The position numbers and the translations under genes were made by a program. Source: Elusimicrobiota bacterium (lineage in GTDB: Bacteria > Elusimicrobiota > Elusimicrobia > Elusimicrobiales > UBA9959). From it: a stretch of DNA of 64,000 bases. Location: the NCBI GenBank assembly GCA_036574205.1, contig JAINCQ010000040.1, forward strand, positions 32,001 through 96,000, read 5' to 3'. How positions within the stretch are numbered: position 1 is the stretch's first letter; the number at the start of each line of letters is the position of its first letter. The notes beneath the pieces were generated by a model, which worked only from the letters and a program-made list of their open reading frames with translations, had not been told where the DNA came from and ran no database searches. Positions 8,665 to 16,795 of the stretch are shown here, piece by piece.

Positions 8665-8711
8665 CTTGTTAGGAGCTAATCTGCTCCGCTTTTTTGTTGA
8701 AGGAGGATTTT

Positions 8712-9896
8712 ATGAATTTGGCAAAACGTATGAGCAGGCTTGGAACTGAAACAGCTTTTGAAGTTTTAGCAAAAGCAAAAAAACTTGAGGCTGAAGGAAA
8801 GGAAATAATCCATCTGGAAATAGGAGAGCCAGATTTTGACACCCCAAGAAATATAAAAAAGGCAGCGATAGACGCTATTAAATCTGGATATACTCACTAT
8901 ACCCCCTCTGCTGGGATCCCACAGGCAAGAGAGGCTGTGGCAGAATATCTGAATAAAACAAGACCAGGTATTGATGCAAAACCAGAGGATATAGTTATAA
9001 CAGTTGGAGGGAAACCAGTAATGCTTTATACGATAACAGCCCTTGTTGATGAAGGAGATGAGGTTATATGCCCAAACCCTTCTTACCCTATATATGAATC
9101 GCTTGTCAATTTTGTTGGAGGAAAAGTTATTCCAATACATATAAAAGAAGAGAAAGGATTTAATTTTGATGTTGATGAACTTGAAAAACTGATAACGCCA
9201 AAAACCAAACTGATTGTTATAAATTCACCAGCAAATCCAACAGGTGGAGTCATTCCCCAAAAAGATTTAGAAAAAATAGTTGAATTACTAAAGAAAAATC
9301 CGCAAATATACGTTTTATCTGATGAGATATACAGCGAAATTATATATTCTGGTAGTCATTTTTCAATAGCTACATATCCGGGGATGAGGCAAAGAACTAT
9401 TGTGCTTGACGGGCTTTCCAAAACTTACGCAATGACTGGATGGAGACTTGGTTATGGACTCTGTCCATCAGATATTGCTCCGTATATAACCAAATTGATA
9501 ACAAACTCTGTTTCATGCGCTCCCGCTTTTGGACAAATGGCATTGGTAGAAGCTCTTAAAGGGCCACAAAATTCTGTTAAGAAAATGCTCAGAGAATTTA
9601 AGAAAAGAAGAGATGCTATAGTAAAGGGATTAAATGAAATACCAGGTTTTTCATGCCAGGTTCCAAAAGGAGCTTTTTATGTTTTCCCCAATATAACAAA
9701 AACCGGGATGAAATCTCAACAATTAGCAGACATAATACTTTATGAAGCAGGTGTGGCATGTTTAAGTGGAACCTGTTTTGGATCATATGGGGAAGGATAT
9801 TTAAGATTTTCCTATGCAAATTCCCTTGAAAATATAAACAAAGCTATAGATAAAATAAAAGCTATATCAGGAAAGTGGGCAAGTAACGTAAAATAA
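8712..9896 (+). CDS. Class I/II PLP-dependent (aspartate-type) aminotransferase
   Basis: GEPDF, NSPANPTGG, SDEIY, SKTYAMTGWRLGY; start moved to ATG 8712 after AAGGAGG. Confidence 0.92.
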   Translation: MNLAKRMSRLGTETAFEVLAKAKKLEAEGKEIIHLEIGEPDFDTPRNIKKAAIDAIKSGYTHYTPSAGIPQAREAVAEYLNKTRPGIDAKPEDIVITVGGKPVMLYTITALVDEGDEVICPNPSYPIYESLVNFVGGKVIPIHIKEEKGFNFDVDELEKLITPKTKLIVINSPANPTGGVIPQKDLEKIVELLKKNPQIYVLSDEIYSEIIYSGSHFSIATYPGMRQRTIVLDGLSKTYAMTGWRLGYGLCPSDIAPYITKLITNSVSCAPAFGQMALVEALKGPQNSVKKMLREFKKRRDAIVKGLNEIPGFSCQVPKGAFYVFPNITKTGMKSQQLADIILYEAGVACLSGTCFGSYGEGYLRFSYANSLENINKAIDKIKAISGKWASNVK

Positions 9897-9916: not shown

Positions 9917-11758
9917 TTATTTAGCTTTTGCAAGGGCAAAATAAAAAGTACTTCCCTTTCCCTTTTCAGATTCAAACCATATTCTTCCATTATGTTTTTC
10001 TATAATACTTTTGGCTATTGAAAGTCCAAGCCCTGTTCCATCTGTATTAAGCATGATATCTTTTGAACGATAAAATTTTTCAAAAATATATTTTTTATCT
10101 TCTTCACTTATTCCATAGCCGCTGTCTGAAACAGAAAATACCACTACACTGCCTCTGTCATGAATATTAACATTTACTTCAGAACCACCAGGTGAATACT
10201 TTATAGCATTATCTACAAGATTCATTACTGCCTGCAATATCCATCGTTTATCAACCATTACATAAACTTTATCTGAATTGTGATTAAAATTTATTTTTAT
10301 TTTTTTGAGATATGACTTAAACTGTAAGGATTTTAAAGAATTATCAACAATTTCAATTAAATCATTTTTTTCAAGCTCAATATCCTGCTCCGAGTTGAGT
10401 CTTGAAATATCAAGAAGATTTGTAACTATACCTATCAACCTGTCAGTAGCCTGACCTACCATATTTAGGAAAGCATTCTGCTGTTCATTCAACTCCCCCG
10501 CTTCTCCATTGAGCAATATTGAAACAAATCCCTTTATTGTAGTAAGAGGTGTTTTTATCTCGTGATTTATTGTTGAAATAAACTCATCCTTAATTTTATT
10601 AAGGTTAGCAAGATTGGCAGCATCTATAGAAATATTTCTATAAAGCTCAAATAAATTTACCATAACCGCCAATTCTTTTGAGATTATCTCCATTAACCTT
10701 ATATCATCCAATGAAATTTCTTTCTTCTCAGAAAATCCTGCGACAAGCACCCCGAACTTGTTTTTGGGACTATATATTGGTAAAATGACTGCGGTTTTTA
10801 TTTTATTATCAAGAAAAATCTTGTCTGATATATTCTTTTCATCATAAACGTAAAGAGTATTTTTATTAAGGAAAGATTTTACTATAAGCGAATCATAATC
10901 TCCAAGGTCTATTGAATAATTGGCTATATTTAAATTACCAGGGGCATAAGAATTAGGCGAAAGTTTTTTTTCCATTTCGTTATATGAATAATAAATGACA
11001 AATGTCGGTGTTATTGTGTTATATATCAACTCCACAAGATGTTTTATTGTTTTTCCCATATCATCTGAACTGAAACTTGTTATGCCTTCATAAAAAATTT
11101 TAGATTCCTTGCTTTTCTTTATAAGTCTTGAACCTTGATTTTCAAGTTCTTTAATTACGCTATCTATTTCTATTTTAAGCTTCTTGTTTTCATCAGAAAT
11201 TCTATATAAAGACTCATAATAATTATTTAAAAATCTAAAAAAAGAAAGCATAAATTTCAAATAATGTAAAATGCAATTTTTGTCTTCATCCCCTATATTT
11301 ATTGCGGAAATAATTTTTCTTGTAGATGTAAAAAGCGGCATAAGTATAAATTTTTTATGTTTACCTTCAAAAAGAGTACCTTTTTCCACCACAATAATAT
11401 CGTCCTTTATAGAAGATATGTTTTTTTCTATCTCAGAGAAATCTATTTCATCCCCCTCATTATTTACCCCTCCTATATAAGTCCATTGTCCATCTTTTTC
11501 CTCAAACAAATAAACTGATATATCTGAAAATATAGAAGTAAGCTTTATAAAAATCATGTTAATCAGATTGATATGGTCTTGCCTTGAAAGATTTGCAGAA
11601 ACAGAAAGGGTTGAAGAAACGAATTCATCAAACTTTACATAGAATTTATCAAGATATTCAATCCTGCTATATAAAGGAATAACCTGATAAAATTTTATAA
11701 ACCAATAGACAATAAAGACTAATACAACTATTATTGTAAAAACCGACAGGAAACTCAT
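9917..11758 (-). CDS. Membrane-anchored GAF-domain sensor histidine kinase (no adjacent response regulator)
   Basis: N-terminal TM helix, GAF-like region, H-box INHEIKTPL, N-box NLVDNAIKYS, DSGYGI, IFEKFYR, GTGLGL. Confidence 0.92.
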   Translation of the reverse strand: MSFLSVFTIIVVLVFIVYWFIKFYQVIPLYSRIEYLDKFYVKFDEFVSSTLSVSANLSRQDHINLINMIFIKLTSIFSDISVYLFEEKDGQWTYIGGVNNEGDEIDFSEIEKNISSIKDDIIVVEKGTLFEGKHKKFILMPLFTSTRKIISAINIGDEDKNCILHYLKFMLSFFRFLNNYYESLYRISDENKKLKIEIDSVIKELENQGSRLIKKSKESKIFYEGITSFSSDDMGKTIKHLVELIYNTITPTFVIYYSYNEMEKKLSPNSYAPGNLNIANYSIDLGDYDSLIVKSFLNKNTLYVYDEKNISDKIFLDNKIKTAVILPIYSPKNKFGVLVAGFSEKKEISLDDIRLMEIISKELAVMVNLFELYRNISIDAANLANLNKIKDEFISTINHEIKTPLTTIKGFVSILLNGEAGELNEQQNAFLNMVGQATDRLIGIVTNLLDISRLNSEQDIELEKNDLIEIVDNSLKSLQFKSYLKKIKINFNHNSDKVYVMVDKRWILQAVMNLVDNAIKYSPGGSEVNVNIHDRGSVVVFSVSDSGYGISEEDKKYIFEKFYRSKDIMLNTDGTGLGLSIAKSIIEKHNGRIWFESEKGKGSTFYFALAKAK

Positions 11759-13545
11759 ATAAGGTCTAATATAGCATTAAGATACATTGATTTGGCTTTT
11801 AATCTGTTCAGATATATCCATCCAGTCTTAATATTAAGACTTTCCATTATTTTTTCAGTAATATGCCTGAATTCTTCTTCTTTTGCGCTTAAAGCACTTG
11901 TTGGAGGTGGACCGATAACAACAAGCCCGTTTATATTTTTATCTACGACAAAATTTCCTATCTTAAAAGGAATTCCATATACCTCATCCGGATCATATTC
12001 CTCTACAAAAATATTTTTCCACGAGATATCCATAGATAAAGTTTTTGATAATTCTTCCTTCATTTTGTTAAAAACATAATTTACATAATTTTTCATGTTT
12101 TTAGGACAGAATACTCCCCCTTTATAAAAGCTTTCATCATCATTTGCAGCATAGAAATTGGCGCCGCTTATCTCCTTTTCAGAAGGAGAGCTCATATCAT
12201 CTTTTTCCCCTATAAGCATGGCAATAAGATCCTGATGCAAAAGAGATGGATTAAAAGGAGATATATATTTTTCTAACTTTTTCATTCTAAAAAGTATTTT
12301 ATTTACGGTTCTAAAGTCCATATTCTTAACAACAAAAAAATTCTTTATGTGATCTTCAGAAAGTTTAATATCCATATTAGTCAATATCTGATTTAATATC
12401 ATTCTATATGTCTGCGGATTAGGAGGCTTTATATCAACCATCCATCCCTGAGAAAATTGTATGCCTAACATATTCTCAAGCGGCTCAAGCTCCTGAGGAG
12501 AAAAAAGCGATGAAAAAACAACCTGTTTATTTGATTGCATGGAATTGTTTATAACCTTGGATATAAAAGATTTATTTTCTTTATTTATGAGCATTAAATG
12601 TATATCATCTATTATTATAACCTTACAATCATTTATAATTTTCTCAAGGCTATCAAGAAATGAATTCTTTATTGCAAGATTAACCCCCATAGAAAACTTT
12701 ACACCACTTGTAACGAATATATCCTTCTGCCCAATTGTTGAGGAAAGCCCATAAGACATTGAATGTATAAAATGAGATTTTCCATTGCCGCGAGGGCCAT
12801 ATATCAAAATCGGATTATACATTACGCCTGGGTTTTCAACAACCGCCATAGCTGCTGCATGAGCGAAACGGTTATGAGAAGCAGTTATTAGAGTTTGAAA
12901 ACTGAGCGTGGGATTTAAAGGAAGTTCTATGGACCATTTAAGTCTCAAGCTTTCTATGACCGTTTTATTTACTTTTGTCTGGCTCTTTTTAGCTTTTTCA
13001 TCCTTTTCTTTTCCTTCTTCCTCTGCACTTTTTTTTATCTTATCTAAACTCATTCTCATTGATTGAGACGCAGGCACAGCTGGACCAAAAGATTTGATAA
13101 CTTTTCTATCTGTTTCTTCCTTCCCTTTTTCTTGAGGTTTTGCCTCAACTATTGGCGGTTTTGTATCCTCTATATTACGTTGCTGGGCTTTAACTTCAAG
13201 ATCTGGCATCGGGATAGACAATGAATCAACCTCATTATTTTTAACAGATCCAGCACTAACAAAATCAACCTGAGCATTTGAAACGACAGTACTAGATTCC
13301 GTATCTGTAATTCTTCCACTAGTTATCTCTTCTATAGTTTTCCTTAGTTTTTTATCTACTTCTTCATTAAAATCAAAAAGATATATTAAGAAATTATAAT
13401 CAGAAGAAATTATTCTTTCAGGCCTTGAACATACTGCACCTAATTTTTTAACTATTTTTAAAATATCCTTTAATTCACACTTAAGCAAAAGCATATATTT
13501 GTTTTCTGAGTCTTTAACCTTTGAAGTCTCCCATTTACTAATCAT
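11755..13545 (-). CDS. DnaA/Hda-family AAA+ domain protein with non-DnaA N- and C-terminal domains
   Basis: LNPTLSF...NRFAHAAAMAVVENPGVMYNPILIYGPRGNGKS (Walker A), IIIDDIH (Walker B), MVDIKPP; no recognisable domain IV helix-turn-helix. Confidence 0.85.
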   Translation of the reverse strand: MISKWETSKVKDSENKYMLLLKCELKDILKIVKKLGAVCSRPERIISSDYNFLIYLFDFNEEVDKKLRKTIEEITSGRITDTESSTVVSNAQVDFVSAGSVKNNEVDSLSIPMPDLEVKAQQRNIEDTKPPIVEAKPQEKGKEETDRKVIKSFGPAVPASQSMRMSLDKIKKSAEEEGKEKDEKAKKSQTKVNKTVIESLRLKWSIELPLNPTLSFQTLITASHNRFAHAAAMAVVENPGVMYNPILIYGPRGNGKSHFIHSMSYGLSSTIGQKDIFVTSGVKFSMGVNLAIKNSFLDSLEKIINDCKVIIIDDIHLMLINKENKSFISKVINNSMQSNKQVVFSSLFSPQELEPLENMLGIQFSQGWMVDIKPPNPQTYRMILNQILTNMDIKLSEDHIKNFFVVKNMDFRTVNKILFRMKKLEKYISPFNPSLLHQDLIAMLIGEKDDMSSPSEKEISGANFYAANDDESFYKGGVFCPKNMKNYVNYVFNKMKEELSKTLSMDISWKNIFVEEYDPDEVYGIPFKIGNFVVDKNINGLVVIGPPPTSALSAKEEEFRHITEKIMESLNIKTGWIYLNRLKAKSMYLNAILDLI

Positions 13546-13548
13546 AAA

Positions 13549-14679
13549 TCACCTTACAATTAACTCCATTATTAATTCTAACGCTATGCTTCTATTAAAA
13601 TTATTTTTTTTGAAATTAACGAAATAAATATTATTATGAGAAAGCGCATTTTCTATTTCATACTTTTTCTCCATAGGCAACTCACCTATAAGGACAACAG
13701 CACAGACTTTCTCCTCTTTTGAATTTAAAAGCACAGAATCAGCGTTAAGATCGTCACTATACGGCAAAACAAAAGCCCTTTTTACAAACATTGGCTTATC
13801 TTTTGAGCTAAGACATATCTCATCTATTGTTTTAAGAGCCTCTTTAAAAACCTCTTCGTCTGAGCCATAAATAAACCCTACACTTTTTATACGTTCAGGT
13901 AAAACCTCAGGTGGTGGTTGTAAAGAAAGATATTTATTTAATTCCATGGAAAATTCAAGGTTTATATTAGAATTAGAGTTTTCATGTCCCATAGTAGCAG
14001 ATACATCGTTTTTTTCAATATCTAAAGCTAACGTTTCTTCAGATTTTTTTATATTATCTTCTAAAACAGGACTAAATTCAATAATTTCATCAGGTTTATT
14101 TTCTTTTAATCCCTCCGACAGGTTTATATCCAGGTTAATATCTTTTTCAATTTTTTCATCATTCTTTTCTTCGGTCTTAACCTCAACACCAACACTATCT
14201 TCATTTGTGTTTACAGAAATATCTTCTTTTTCCTTTTCTCTTTCCAAATTTTGACTATTATCAGCCGTCTGTAAAACAACATCAGAACCTTCCTCCTTAG
14301 TTTCATTGTTATTTACTTGTTCTATATTTTCAGATTTGACCTCAGTTTGATTTACATCTACTTTTTTTTCATCTTTATTTTCAGAAATAATAGTATGGTC
14401 AAACAACTGGATATCATCTAAATTAATATCATCGGTTGTTTTTTTAGAATCATCAGAATTTTCATTCTCGTTATTAATCTTGGAGGTATCAGCGTTTATC
14501 TTTTTTGTCTCTTCTTCCACCAATTGTTTGTCTTTGTTTAAATCAGTCAATTCTTCTTTCTCTTCTGAAGTTTTTTTAACACTATCAAGGACTTCCGGCA
14601 TTTTATCAAGCAAAGAATTCAAATCATTTAAAATATCATCAAAAGACCTTTTTTTATTTTTATCATCACTATTATCCAT
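13549..14679 (-). CDS. Hypothetical protein: N-terminal amphipathic helix, long acidic disordered linker, C-terminal alpha/beta domain
   Basis: 376-aa ORF with GGAG SD; D/E/N/K-rich middle; ordered C-terminal ~115 aa. Confidence 0.8.
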   Translation of the reverse strand: MDNSDDKNKKRSFDDILNDLNSLLDKMPEVLDSVKKTSEEKEELTDLNKDKQLVEEETKKINADTSKINNENENSDDSKKTTDDINLDDIQLFDHTIISENKDEKKVDVNQTEVKSENIEQVNNNETKEEGSDVVLQTADNSQNLEREKEKEDISVNTNEDSVGVEVKTEEKNDEKIEKDINLDINLSEGLKENKPDEIIEFSPVLEDNIKKSEETLALDIEKNDVSATMGHENSNSNINLEFSMELNKYLSLQPPPEVLPERIKSVGFIYGSDEEVFKEALKTIDEICLSSKDKPMFVKRAFVLPYSDDLNADSVLLNSKEEKVCAVVLIGELPMEKKYEIENALSHNNIYFVNFKKNNFNRSIALELIMELIVR

Positions 14680-14817
14680 ATCTATATCTCCAAAAATAGT
14701 ATTTTCTAGAGCTAAACTGTTACCAATATAAATTATACAATTTATTTAATTCATATTTCAGGATCTTTTATGTTTTAGTTTTCGCATAATAAATTCCTAA
14801 AATGTTATAATAATTTT

Positions 14818-16236
14818 ATGATAACAATTAATAATTTAAACCCAAATTTAAGAAAAGCGCAATATGCCGTGCGTGGCAAAATACTTCAACGGGCTTATGA
14901 ACTTGAAAAAAAAGGGAGAAAAATAATTTATTGCAATATAGGAAATCCTCAGGCTTTAAAACAAAAACCTATTACATATGTCAGGCAACTTTTAGCTCTT
15001 ACTGAATACCCATCTCTAATAGACAATCAAAAAAGAGGACTTTTTTTTAATGATGTAATAAAAAAAGCAAAACAAATATTGAAAGAAAATCCAAATGGAC
15101 TTGGAGCCTATACCCAAAGCGAAGGAATGCCCTTTATTAGAAAATCTGTGGCTGAATTTATAAAAAAGCGTGATACAATAGATGCTACTCCAGAGAGGAT
15201 AATTTTAACAGATGGGGCTTCAAAAGGAATTCAGGCAGTTTTTACCCTTTTAATAAAAAATTCAAACTCAGGCTTTATGATCCCGATTCCTCAGTATCCC
15301 CTTTATAGCGCTACAATAGCATTATATGGAGCAAAACAAATAAATTACTATTTAGACGAAGATAAACACTGGGAACTTAATGAGAATGAACTAAAATCAA
15401 GCATTAATGAGGCAGTTAAAAATAAAATAGAACCAGTTGCTATAGTGGTTATAAATCCAGGCAATCCAACAGGGGCTGTTCTTTCAAAAGAAAACATAAA
15501 AATGATAATAAACTTTGCAAGGAAATATAATCTTTCAATACTGGCAGATGAAGTTTATCAAGAAAATATATATAGTTCCAAACATTCCTTTCATTCTTTT
15601 GCTAAAGTAATGTCGGAGATGAAAATAACAGACGTTCCATTATTCAGTTTTCATTCAACCTCAAAAGGCTTTTTTGGTGAATGTGGACATAGAGGTGGAT
15701 ATCTTGAAACAAGAAATGTAGGAGATGATGTATATTATGAAATAATAAAACTTCAATCCATAGGGCTTTGCGCAAATACAGCAGGTCAAATTGTTACTTA
15801 TGCAATGGTCAATCCACCTCAAAAAAATGAAGATAGTTATGAGTTATACATGAAAGAGAAAAATTCAATACTTTCAGAACTTAAGAAAAAAGCTGAAATA
15901 CTGGGGGAGGAATTAAATAAAATAGAAGGGGTTTCCCTTAAAATACCATATGGTGCAATGTATGCTTTTGTAAAAATAGACTTACCCCAACCAAAGGATA
16001 TTAATTTTAAAAATATGACTCAAAAAGAGATTGTTGAGTATGAATCAAAAAGAGATTTTGATTACTGCCTTAATCTGCTTGAAGAAACAGGCATATGCGT
16101 GGTCCCGGGGTCTGGATTTGGTCAGAAACCTCATACATATCACTTCAGAACTACATTTTTGCCGCCATTAGAGGAAATAAAGTATTTTGTAAAAAAATTT
16201 AAAAACTTTCACTTTAATTATTTAAAAAAAATATAA
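14818..16236 (+). CDS. Alanine aminotransferase (eukaryote-like AlaAT/GPT subfamily)
   Basis: QYAVRG, CNIGNPQ, PIPQYPLYSA, NPGNPTG, HSTSKGFFGECGHRGGY, VVPGSGFGQ..TYHFRTTFLP. Confidence 0.88.
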   Translation: MITINNLNPNLRKAQYAVRGKILQRAYELEKKGRKIIYCNIGNPQALKQKPITYVRQLLALTEYPSLIDNQKRGLFFNDVIKKAKQILKENPNGLGAYTQSEGMPFIRKSVAEFIKKRDTIDATPERIILTDGASKGIQAVFTLLIKNSNSGFMIPIPQYPLYSATIALYGAKQINYYLDEDKHWELNENELKSSINEAVKNKIEPVAIVVINPGNPTGAVLSKENIKMIINFARKYNLSILADEVYQENIYSSKHSFHSFAKVMSEMKITDVPLFSFHSTSKGFFGECGHRGGYLETRNVGDDVYYEIIKLQSIGLCANTAGQIVTYAMVNPPQKNEDSYELYMKEKNSILSELKKKAEILGEELNKIEGVSLKIPYGAMYAFVKIDLPQPKDINFKNMTQKEIVEYESKRDFDYCLNLLEETGICVVPGSGFGQKPHTYHFRTTFLPPLEEIKYFVKKFKNFHFNYLKKI

Positions 16237-16272
16237 CAAATTAGTTTCTAAATAAGGTAAAATTTATTTAAT

Positions 16273-16360
16273 GGGCTGGTGGCGGAATTGGTAGACGCGA
16301 CGGACTTAAAATCCGTTGGCTGATTAAACAGCCGTGCGGGTTCGAGTCCCGCCCTGCCCA
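16273..16360 (+). tRNA. tRNA-Leu (anticodon TAA), CCA end not encoded
   Basis: Cloverleaf: D arm GGCGGAATTGGTAGACGC, anticodon arm ACGGA-CTTAAAA-TCCGT, long variable arm GGCTG/CAGCC, T arm GCGGG-TTCGAGT-CCCGC, discriminator A. Confidence 0.96.
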
Positions 16361-16373
16361 CTGCTGGTACTAA

Positions 16374-16611
16374 GTCATGGCGGTAAGCCATGACGTGGGT
16401 GAGGACTGCCTTTAGAGCGAAACCTCAAATGGTTTTGCGTGCAGTCCGCAAGGCCGCAGTTCGCCCTGGGCATACAGGCGAACGAGGCGGGGTCGCGCAA
16501 AGCCCGCCAGGCTTATGCGTGACTCGAAAGCCCGCAGCAAAACTTGGGCAATACAGTTTTGCGAGGGGCGGCCCGCAAAAAATTTTGCGGTTAGCAAAAT
16601 TTATTTGTGGG
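16374..16611 (+). ncRNA. GC-rich multi-hairpin structured element downstream of tRNA-Leu (unclassified ncRNA or ssDNA element)
   Basis: Six consecutive hairpins found by eye; two share flanks and loop but have different, fully pairing stems; strand and RNA nature are inferred. Confidence 0.6.
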
Positions 16612-16630
16612 AGAATTCCTTTGACATATT

Positions 16631-16795
16631 AAAATCTCTTCCCCCTTAACTCTTCTCACCCTAACCATCTCCAAAAAGGAGAGGGGATATGGCAGTTAAA
16701 CCGTCTAAGGAAGATAAAATCAGTTTTTCTTTGGCTTAAGAAAACAATTATCCACAGTTTAATTATGGCCGTGGAAAATTAGTGGATGTTGTTTT
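16631..16795. repeat. Intergenic repeat modules B-C-A, copy 2
   Basis: Matches 4768-4815, 4920-4970 and 4648-4701, in a different order. Confidence 0.9.

Follow-up and report, generated by a model that had tools for sequence, protein, structure and literature searches.

Organization of the three-gene locus

Three adjacent minus-strand genes, here called g1, g2 and the kinase gene, were analyzed in a 64,000-nucleotide (nt) stretch of an Elusimicrobiota genome of the order Elusimicrobiales (assembly GCA_036574205.1, contig JAINCQ010000040.1, positions 32,001 to 96,000). The whole stretch is referred to as the window and the contig that holds it as C34. g2 encodes a DnaA-derived AAA+ protein, g1 a protein with a long disordered linker and a C-terminal domain homologous to that of g2, and the third gene a membrane-anchored orphan sensor kinase. 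Taken together, these features suggest a control device that is undescribed so far, not a gene for replication. The full-text literature, with subscription journals outside its coverage, gave no description of the g1/g2 family, in agreement with the preliminary description of this DNA, which had not recognized the system as a described one.

g1 and g2 are separated by 3 nt (13546-13548), and the reading frames of g2 and the kinase share 4 nt (11755-11758). No terminator-like site was found on the minus strand within the three-gene unit. The spacing, the overlap and the lack of an internal terminator-like site are best explained by a single operon, and translational coupling of the kinase to g2 would be the best explanation for the arrangement of their reading frames. 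Class I/II aminotransferase genes on the plus strand (8694-9896 and 14818-16236) flank the trio, and the GC content is ~31% throughout the region. The tight coupling and the aminotransferases on the other strand were thus found as the preliminary description had reported them. It had also assigned to the unit its own TATAAT box and Shine-Dalgarno sequence. Both motifs are present, with the sequence GGAGA a few bases 5' of the g1 ATG, but the promoter claim itself is weak: the AT-rich stretch contains 30 promoter-like sites compared with 27.0 ± 5.3 in shuffled sequences, which is no enrichment. Because similar sites are not enriched over the shuffles, the CTGAAA-18-TATAAT site is weakly supported as a promoter for g1, with which it is compatible. 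The coordinates of all features are collected in Table 1.

Table 1. Features of the three-gene locus in window coordinates (aa, amino acids; pLDDT, predicted local distance difference test score)
Feature	Position	Strand	Description
g1	13549-14679	-	Open reading frame, 376 aa; helix motif, acidic disordered linker and C-terminal alpha/beta domain
g1 amphipathic helix motif, residues ~8-36	14572-14658	-	Kept in 19/19 aligned orthologues
g1 acidic low-complexity linker, residues 41-245	13945-14559	-	205 aa, 28% D+E, net charge -33
g1 C-terminal domain, residues 246-376	13552-13944	-	AlphaFold model with pLDDT 94; conserved in orthologues
g2	11755-13545	-	Open reading frame, 596 aa; DnaA-derived AAA+ protein
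g2 N-terminal domain, residues 1-78	13312-13545	-	Family-specific; conserved across order and phylum; no Pfam match
g2 disordered linker, residues 79-200	12946-13311	-	Aligns poorly, variable length
g2 AAA+ module (DnaA domain III type) with lid	12241-12945	-	Walker A/B invariant, box VII arginine replaced
g2 C-terminal domain, residues 436-596	11758-12240	-	In place of DnaA domain IV; model with pLDDT 86
Kinase	9917-11758	-	Open reading frame, 613 aa; transmembrane segment, GAF-like region, GAF, HisKA, HATPase_c; membrane-anchored orphan sensor
Kinase HisKA (phospho-acceptor), residues 390-456	10391-10591	-	PF00512, E 4.2e-16, 59.2 bits, above cut-off
Kinase HATPase_c, residues 503-610	9929-10252	-	PF02518, E 9.7e-30, 103.7 bits, above cut-off
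Promoter-like site upstream of g1	14732-14761	-	CTGAAA-18-TATAAT; 10/12 consensus positions

g2 is a DnaA paralogue with an altered ATPase core

Residues 210-370 of g2 match the Bac_DnaA family (PF00308) with an expectation value (E) of 2e-28 and 100 bits at a cut-off of 23, so that the DnaA-type ATPase core noticed in the preliminary description is clearly present. The Pfam scan of g2 gave no match to DnaA_N (domain I, PF11638) and none to Bac_DnaA_C (domain IV, PF08299), the DnaA-box-binding part. The protein also remained under the cut-offs of the models for DnaA (equivalog TIGR00362, 136.9 bits compared with 343.9) and Hda (TIGR03420, 39.1 bits compared with 194.8). Sequence matches of the AAA+ module in the PDB were to DnaA (E 1e-35 to 1e-22), with IstB next. 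When 19 orthologues were aligned, a four-part layout emerged: a conserved N-domain, a linker that is disordered and variable, the AAA+ module and a conserved C-domain. Structural neighbors of the N-domain were weak (dimerization modules of Rpb11/RpoL and Pcc1 and ACT-like small alpha/beta domains, template modeling scores of 0.6-0.7), and a feature search of the structural atlas with this domain gave no usable match. In some distant members of the family (proteins P0244, P0259 and P0255), an insert with four cysteines that resembles a zinc ribbon interrupts the linker immediately ahead of the C-domain.

In the same alignment, Walker A (GxxGxGK[ST]H) and the DD of Walker B are invariant. The arginine finger position of box VII is occupied by Q in the window protein and by Q, E or H in all 19 sequences, which come from the families here numbered f1 and f3, and the arginine is also replaced in other orders of the class. 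The true DnaA of the genome has R at this position. g2 members from other classes of the phylum have kept a canonical Walker A, sensor I, box VII (R) and sensor II.

The true DnaA is a canonical protein of 446 aa encoded on contig C27, with DnaA_N, Bac_DnaA (E 5e-51) and Bac_DnaA_C (E 3e-27). The AAA+ protein of the window is therefore not the only DnaA of the genome, a possibility that the preliminary description had named as one that would speak against its proposal. Because a canonical DnaA is encoded elsewhere, g2 is judged from its sequence to be a DnaA paralogue and not the initiator. In the order-level search with g2, the second matches listed were weaker and mostly lay in DnaA-sized frames, and a normal DnaA with domain IV is likewise encoded in all five other-class genomes checked. 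Since the other-class members are canonical and the genomes checked also encode a normal DnaA, g2 appears to be an old paralogue that probably lost its arginine finger later, in the class of the window.

g1 and g2 share a homologous C-terminal domain

g1 did not match any Pfam family at E<=0.01, and the NCBIfam scan returned only a chance-level match (TrlF, 15.8 bits compared with a cut-off of 350). The helix, acidic linker and folded tail attributed to it in the preliminary description were all recovered. Within the helix motif, L17, L20, L24, M27 and P28 are invariant or near-invariant in 19 orthologues, and the motif can also be recognized by eye in other orders and classes. The linker varies between 45 and 602 aa, is net negative in 18 of the 19 orthologues and is often rich in proline.

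The gene anatomy in the preliminary description stood, but the homologous C-domain common to g1 and g2 had been overlooked. The models of both C-domains consist of four beta-alpha units in the same order. Alignment of the two domains with hhalign gave E 3.7e-4 with 19 and 21 sequences. After the alignments had been enlarged with homologues from other orders and classes, to 39 g1 and up to 64 g2 sequences, the value improved to E 1.3e-9 with a probability of 96% over 117 columns. The full-length comparison of g1 with g2 is weak (E 0.017), and the relationship becomes convincing only with the domain alignments and more sequences. The nearest solved folds are the same for both: the top 18 VIA-align matches of the g2 C-domain (Z 8.0-10.8) and the top 10 of the g1 C-domain (Z 9.5-11.8) are MID domains of Argonaute/Piwi proteins. 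A Foldseek search of the PDB with the g2 C-domain gave nothing at E<=1e-3, and none of 21 members had a Pfam match in this domain at E<=0.01. Neither g1 nor g2 matches the Pfam receiver family (PF00072). The residue after strand 3 of the g1 C-domain varies (E/D/N/A/T), so there is no conserved phospho-acceptor aspartate, and receiver domains appear among its fold matches at Z 8.4-9.3 only.

In one locus from another class (L081:2655-4199), the gene in the g1 position combines a g2-type N-domain, the helix motif and an acidic linker with a g1-type C-domain. Because of this gene and the homology of the C-domains, g1 is best read as an AAA-less paralogue of g2, a copy that would have lost the ATPase. 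In another locus (L086:4071-6839), a g2 protein of 922 aa with two tandem N-domains abuts pilT and there is no separate g1; this protein may be a fusion.

The kinase has no neighboring response regulator

The best NCBIfam matches of the kinase (PnpS, WalK and PhoR) cover its catalytic half only, and all are under the cut-offs. One hydrophobic segment was found, at residues 1-30. The match to GAF_2 is weak in the window protein (19.8 bits, under the cut-off of 28.6) and clear in an orthologue from an f1 relative (L021, E 2e-17). The transmembrane, HisKA and HATPase_c parts of the architecture proposed in the preliminary description are therefore present, whereas its GAF domain is below the cut-off here and clear in orthologues. 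Because the protein has a single N-terminal anchor, its sensing parts are probably all cytoplasmic.

None of the 25 receiver-domain matches of the genome lies on contig C34, and no response regulator is found beside the kinase in four loci from other orders (L050, L052, L053 and L054), which agrees with the missing regulator noted before. The whole genome has 12 HATPase_c matches. Since these are outnumbered by the receiver matches, an orphan kinase is not unusual in this genome, and many unpaired regulators are available.

Conservation within Elusimicrobiales and range of the family

The order-level sample consisted of 41 genomes, with families f1 (24 genomes), f3 (2) and f2 (14) used for the g1 counts. 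g2 was present in 40 of the 41, the sole miss being a genome of 60% completeness. g1 was found in 23/24 f1 and 2/2 f3 genomes and in 0/14 f2 genomes, and its orthologues adjoin g2 in 23 of the 26 f1/f3 genomes. With a criterion of E<=1e-75, an orthologous kinase was detected in 23 genomes of the order and adjoins g2 on the same contig in 20/26 f1/f3 genomes; the remaining genomes of the order gave generic kinase matches only (~1e-25 to 1e-34). According to the coordinates, the 26 f1/f3 genomes comprise 18 with the trio on one contig, 5 with the trio split over contig ends, 2 of genus g8 with g1 and g2 but no orthologous kinase, and 1 incomplete genome with none of the three. The synteny in relatives on which the preliminary description had made its proposal depend is therefore real. 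The open reading frames of the trio were confirmed in 16 of the 18 genomes that have it on one contig. In the f1 relative L021, a 181-aa protein with zinc-ribbon and HEAT-repeat matches is encoded directly upstream of g1 (L021:4680-5225); no such gene precedes g1 in the window.

In family f2, with genomes of 1.2-1.7 Mb, the g2 proteins are ~900-1600 aa in length. They share the N-domain, their linker extends over ~700-1100 aa, and no g1 or kinase gene adjoins theirs. Two examples are the orthologues of 1624 and 1206 aa at L033:8398-13272 and L034:8220-11840; the linker of the latter contains three near-identical tandem units of ~49 aa each. A fusion of g1 with g2 in f2 was considered and rejected, as the long proteins have the g2 N-domain at their start and lack any domain of g1. 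One genome of this family (G081; L057 and L058) has two genes with g2 C-domains, of 798 and 681 aa, on different contigs. In a locus from another class (L048:7070-9111), g2 is represented by two adjacent open reading frames, one for the N-domain and linker (227 aa) and one for the AAA+ module and C-domain (448 aa), a division that is either genuine or an artifact of the assembly or of a frameshift.

A profile of the g2 C-domain matched proteins in 157 of 301 genomes of the phylum. By family, the counts were 21/21 for f1, 88/88 for f2, 23/27 for f8, 4/4 for f6 and 0/89 for f15. In a collection of 1.84 billion proteins, the profile identified 158 cluster representatives, nearly always with the domain at the C terminus. 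Bac_DnaA is carried by 42 of 44 representatives checked; the two exceptions have 217 and 253 aa. The source names seen were Elusimicrobia or Elusimicrobiota, one Endomicrobiales, or unspecific ("bacterium," "subsurface metagenome"). As far as lineages are named, the family is therefore seen only under Elusimicrobiota labels, and a phylum-specific cassette would be the best explanation for this distribution. Public records often name members of the family "DnaA" or "DnaA/Hda family." The label "chromosomal replication initiator protein DnaA" on many of them can mislead the prediction of origins and gene counts in Elusimicrobiota.

Outside the order, the trio is often preceded by a PilT-family gene

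The gene order was analyzed in 39 loci outside Elusimicrobiales, of which 27 belong to the same class but to other orders and 12 to other classes; contig ends truncate several of the loci. Immediately upstream, 24 loci (17 same-class, 7 other-class) carry a PilT/PilU-family gene. A separate g1-type gene was found with the enlarged profile in 23 (18 and 5, respectively), and 24 loci (20 and 4) have the orthologous kinase immediately after g2. The complete set of four was present in 15 loci, 14/27 from the same class and 1/12 from other classes, and the open reading frames as called often abut or overlap. Three operon-linked PilT proteins were tested against TIGR01420 (PilT/PilU), and all three scored above the cut-off of 319.1 bits (425-451 bits). 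In a quick tree, the operon-linked PilTs form one clade of 24 sequences with a Shimodaira-Hasegawa-like approximate likelihood ratio support of 97. Six Elusimicrobiales genomes contributed 18 PilT paralogues to the tree, three of them from the window genome, and all 18 fall outside this clade. Because of this, the order of the window appears to have lost the dedicated PilT motor and kept the trio.

The long-range gene order was read in nine loci (L045, L046, L050, L052, L053, L054, L021, L031 and L033). Upstream of pilT-g1-g2-kinase lies DeoC, joined in some loci by bacterial microcompartment shell/EutN genes. Downstream follow a lipoprotein of 350-370 aa, a GNA1162-like lipoprotein, CsgG and ComM, in Elusimicrobiales also DprA and TopA. 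A conserved downstream gene of 369 aa was tried as a fourth member of the unit and rejected, since it encodes the lipoprotein that heads the GNA1162/CsgG set. The trio of the window itself is no longer found in the DeoC/PilT/ComM context.

Another feature of the window

A tRNA-Leu(TAA) gene at 16273-16361 is followed by a GC-rich stretch (the two together spanning 16273-16650), with ~42% GC in 16000-16499 compared with ~31% in the region. Over 271 nt, this stretch has a predicted folding energy of -114.5 kcal/mol (z -5.4), which was equaled by 0/200 shuffles, and a comparison with Rfam gave no match at E<=0.1. A structured RNA of an unclassified kind could explain the stretch, as could the remnant of an integrated element.

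Proposed role and alternative explanations

The alignments, domain searches and gene orders establish the anatomy of the trio, the paralogy of g1 and g2, their conservation, the gene order and the loss of catalytic and DNA-binding features, as far as these can be read from sequence. The physical assembly of the products, the coupling of the kinase and an output in pili or DNA uptake are what we infer from them. The interpretation we favor, with a probability of about 0.4, is that of an ATP-gated scaffold with an orphan kinase whose ancestral link would be with type IV pili or the uptake of DNA, not with origin firing. In this model, g1 and g2 would assemble via their paralogous C-domains, with the helix of g1 serving for interaction and its acidic linker as a tether. 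g2 would be a switch that binds nucleotide, not a motor that melts DNA. The membrane-anchored GAF kinase would be recruited to the g1-g2 scaffold or would read its state, and it could signal to one of the many unpaired response regulators of the genome. Because a PilT-family retraction ATPase of its own was the first gene of the ancestral cassette, the process controlled at the envelope would most likely be DNA uptake or the activity or positioning of type IV pili. A more specific version is doubtful: in it, the initiator fold serves throughout the phylum as the nucleotide switch of a new control device for an envelope organelle, a g1-g2 hetero-oligomer held together by the lineage-specific MID-like domain tethers the dedicated PilT and the GAF kinase and so governs pilus retraction or DNA uptake, and the form in the window has shed the motor while retaining switch, tether and kinase.

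Several observations weigh against a scaffold linked to pili. The dedicated PilT is absent from the order of the window, yet the trio persists there, and g2 is kept alone in 88/88 of the small f2 genomes; because of both, g2 should have a role that is independent of the motor, g1 and the kinase. PilT-family genes also occur in lineages without g2 (35/89 genomes of f15; f5, f9, f10 and f11 are all positive), and with 246/301 genomes PilT is so nearly universal in the phylum that its distribution does not connect g2 with pili. The long-range gene order of the phylum has also kept genes without an obvious connection to the trio, such as DeoC, the lipoprotein/GNA1162/CsgG set and ComM, and conservation of the neighborhood may in part be inertia. 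The gradient of the MID matches is shallow; for g1, Z falls from 11.8 for the best match to 8.4 for the fiftieth. Because many Rossmann/flavodoxin-like folds score closely behind, the MID-like match would name a type of fold and not a function. Finally, where the AAA+ core is fully canonical, as in members from other classes, the protein could still have DNA or DnaA as its target.

The last point leads to the alternative that g2 is a regulator of replication or the cell cycle, which would cap or titrate oligomers of the true DnaA via its AAA+ face, with the kinase linking initiation to signaling. A module of this kind had been proposed in the preliminary description. g2 does belong to the DnaA clade of AAA+ proteins, as its PDB matches indicate. 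The near-canonical members of other classes (Bac_DnaA E ~1e-70, box VII and sensor II intact) make co-assembly with DnaA conceivable, and an intact ATP site minus the arginine finger could in principle end a DnaA filament. Retention of g2 throughout the reduced f2 genomes resembles that of a housekeeping gene, and topA, dprA and comM lie nearby in the order. However, the arginine finger that Hda-type stimulation of hydrolysis requires is absent, and g2 is far below the cut-offs of the Hda (39 bits compared with 195) and DnaA models. dnaA or dnaN was never adjacent to g2 among the loci examined; the conserved partners are the PilT motor and the kinase, and all 89 f15 genomes lack the family. 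No result supports the link to the cell cycle or to DnaA regulation, and we consider this explanation unlikely.

It is less probable still that g1 and g2 handle incoming DNA directly during pilus-driven uptake, for transformation or as food, with the kinase reporting the availability of DNA. The DnaA-type core as a binder of single-stranded DNA and the MID-like domain as a binder of DNA ends would then receive and guide the DNA. This would suit a cassette with a dedicated PilT upstream, DeoC and microcompartment shell genes further upstream, and ComM (in the order also DprA and TopA) downstream on the same strand, and also C-domains closest to the Argonaute MID domains, which bind 5' ends of nucleic acids. 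The genome encodes ComEC and DprA as well, but these are common in bacteria (10/14 and 11/14 control genomes), the fold match is to a generic Rossmann-like type, the clade of the window has lost the arginine finger, and its trio lies outside the DeoC/PilT/ComM context.

An equally improbable alternative is that g1 and g2 form a unit with another role and the kinase is a co-transcribed neighbor with an unrelated signaling task: no kinase lies beside g2 in genus g8 (2/2), in any of the 14 f2 genomes or at several loci of other classes, and g2 and the kinase occur without g1 in L055, L067, L069 and L077, so that the parts do separate in evolution, but the same orthologue follows g2 in 20/26 f1/f3 genomes, 20/27 loci of other orders and 4/12 of other classes, with E 1e-130 to 1e-169 on the kinase profile of the order compared with ~1e-30 for generic paralogues, and the stop/start overlap is frequent.

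To our knowledge, the DnaA paralogues known so far act on replication. The locus presents a DnaA-derived ATPase minus all DNA-reading parts. It is accompanied by a disordered protein paralogous to it, by a sensor kinase and, ancestrally, by a pilus motor, and its family is kept through much of Elusimicrobiota, a phylum with few cultured members. If the model of a switch and scaffold for pili or DNA uptake is true, the initiator fold would have been put to a new use, and the regulators of pili would include a class not known before.

Comparison with known systems

Among known proteins, DnaA is the obvious point of reference for g2. Both have a DnaA-clade AAA+ fold with Walker A and B motifs at the same spacing, and the succession of N-domain, flexible linker, AAA+ module and C-domain in g2 mirrors domains I-IV of DnaA. 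Unlike DnaA, g2 lacks DnaA_N and the helix-turn-helix of domain IV, has a new N-domain and a small Rossmann-like C-domain in their place, remains under the equivalog cut-off and has a replacement for the arginine of box VII, which in DnaA supports ATP-dependent assembly on DNA. Hda and HdaA resemble g2 in being DnaA paralogues that have no DNA-binding domain and are unable to read DnaA boxes. They differ from it in that g2, with ~600 aa, has two extra domains and a disordered linker but no arginine finger, and is in an operon with the kinase and ancestrally with PilT instead of replication genes. Hda carries an N-terminal beta-clamp-binding motif, whereas the conserved N terminus of g2 is a folded domain of ~75 aa.

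g1 resembles scaffolds of the PopZ, HubP and FimV type in its layout: its conserved helix is short, the disordered region that follows is long, acidic and in many orthologues rich in proline, and the C-terminal module is folded. The likeness to PopZ drawn in the preliminary description holds for this architecture but not for the sequence: Pfam includes a PopZ model, and no Pfam family matches g1. In sequence, g1 is not related to HubP or FimV either, and its C-terminal module is an alpha/beta domain paralogous to that of g2 and not a helical oligomerization domain. Structurally, the MID domain of Argonaute/Piwi proteins is the best match to both C-domains, over 107-133 residues with root mean square deviations of 2.7-4.7 Å; sequence identity is 4-15%, and the C-domains have no Pfam match.

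With complete HisKA and HATPase_c domains and a single N-terminal anchor, the kinase of the window resembles orphan HisKA kinases with a cytoplasmic GAF domain. It differs from HisKA kinases with a partner regulator in that none is adjacent in any locus examined. With pilus-linked kinases, of which PilS is one, it shares the connection to a pilus motor, in this case through the ancestral operon.

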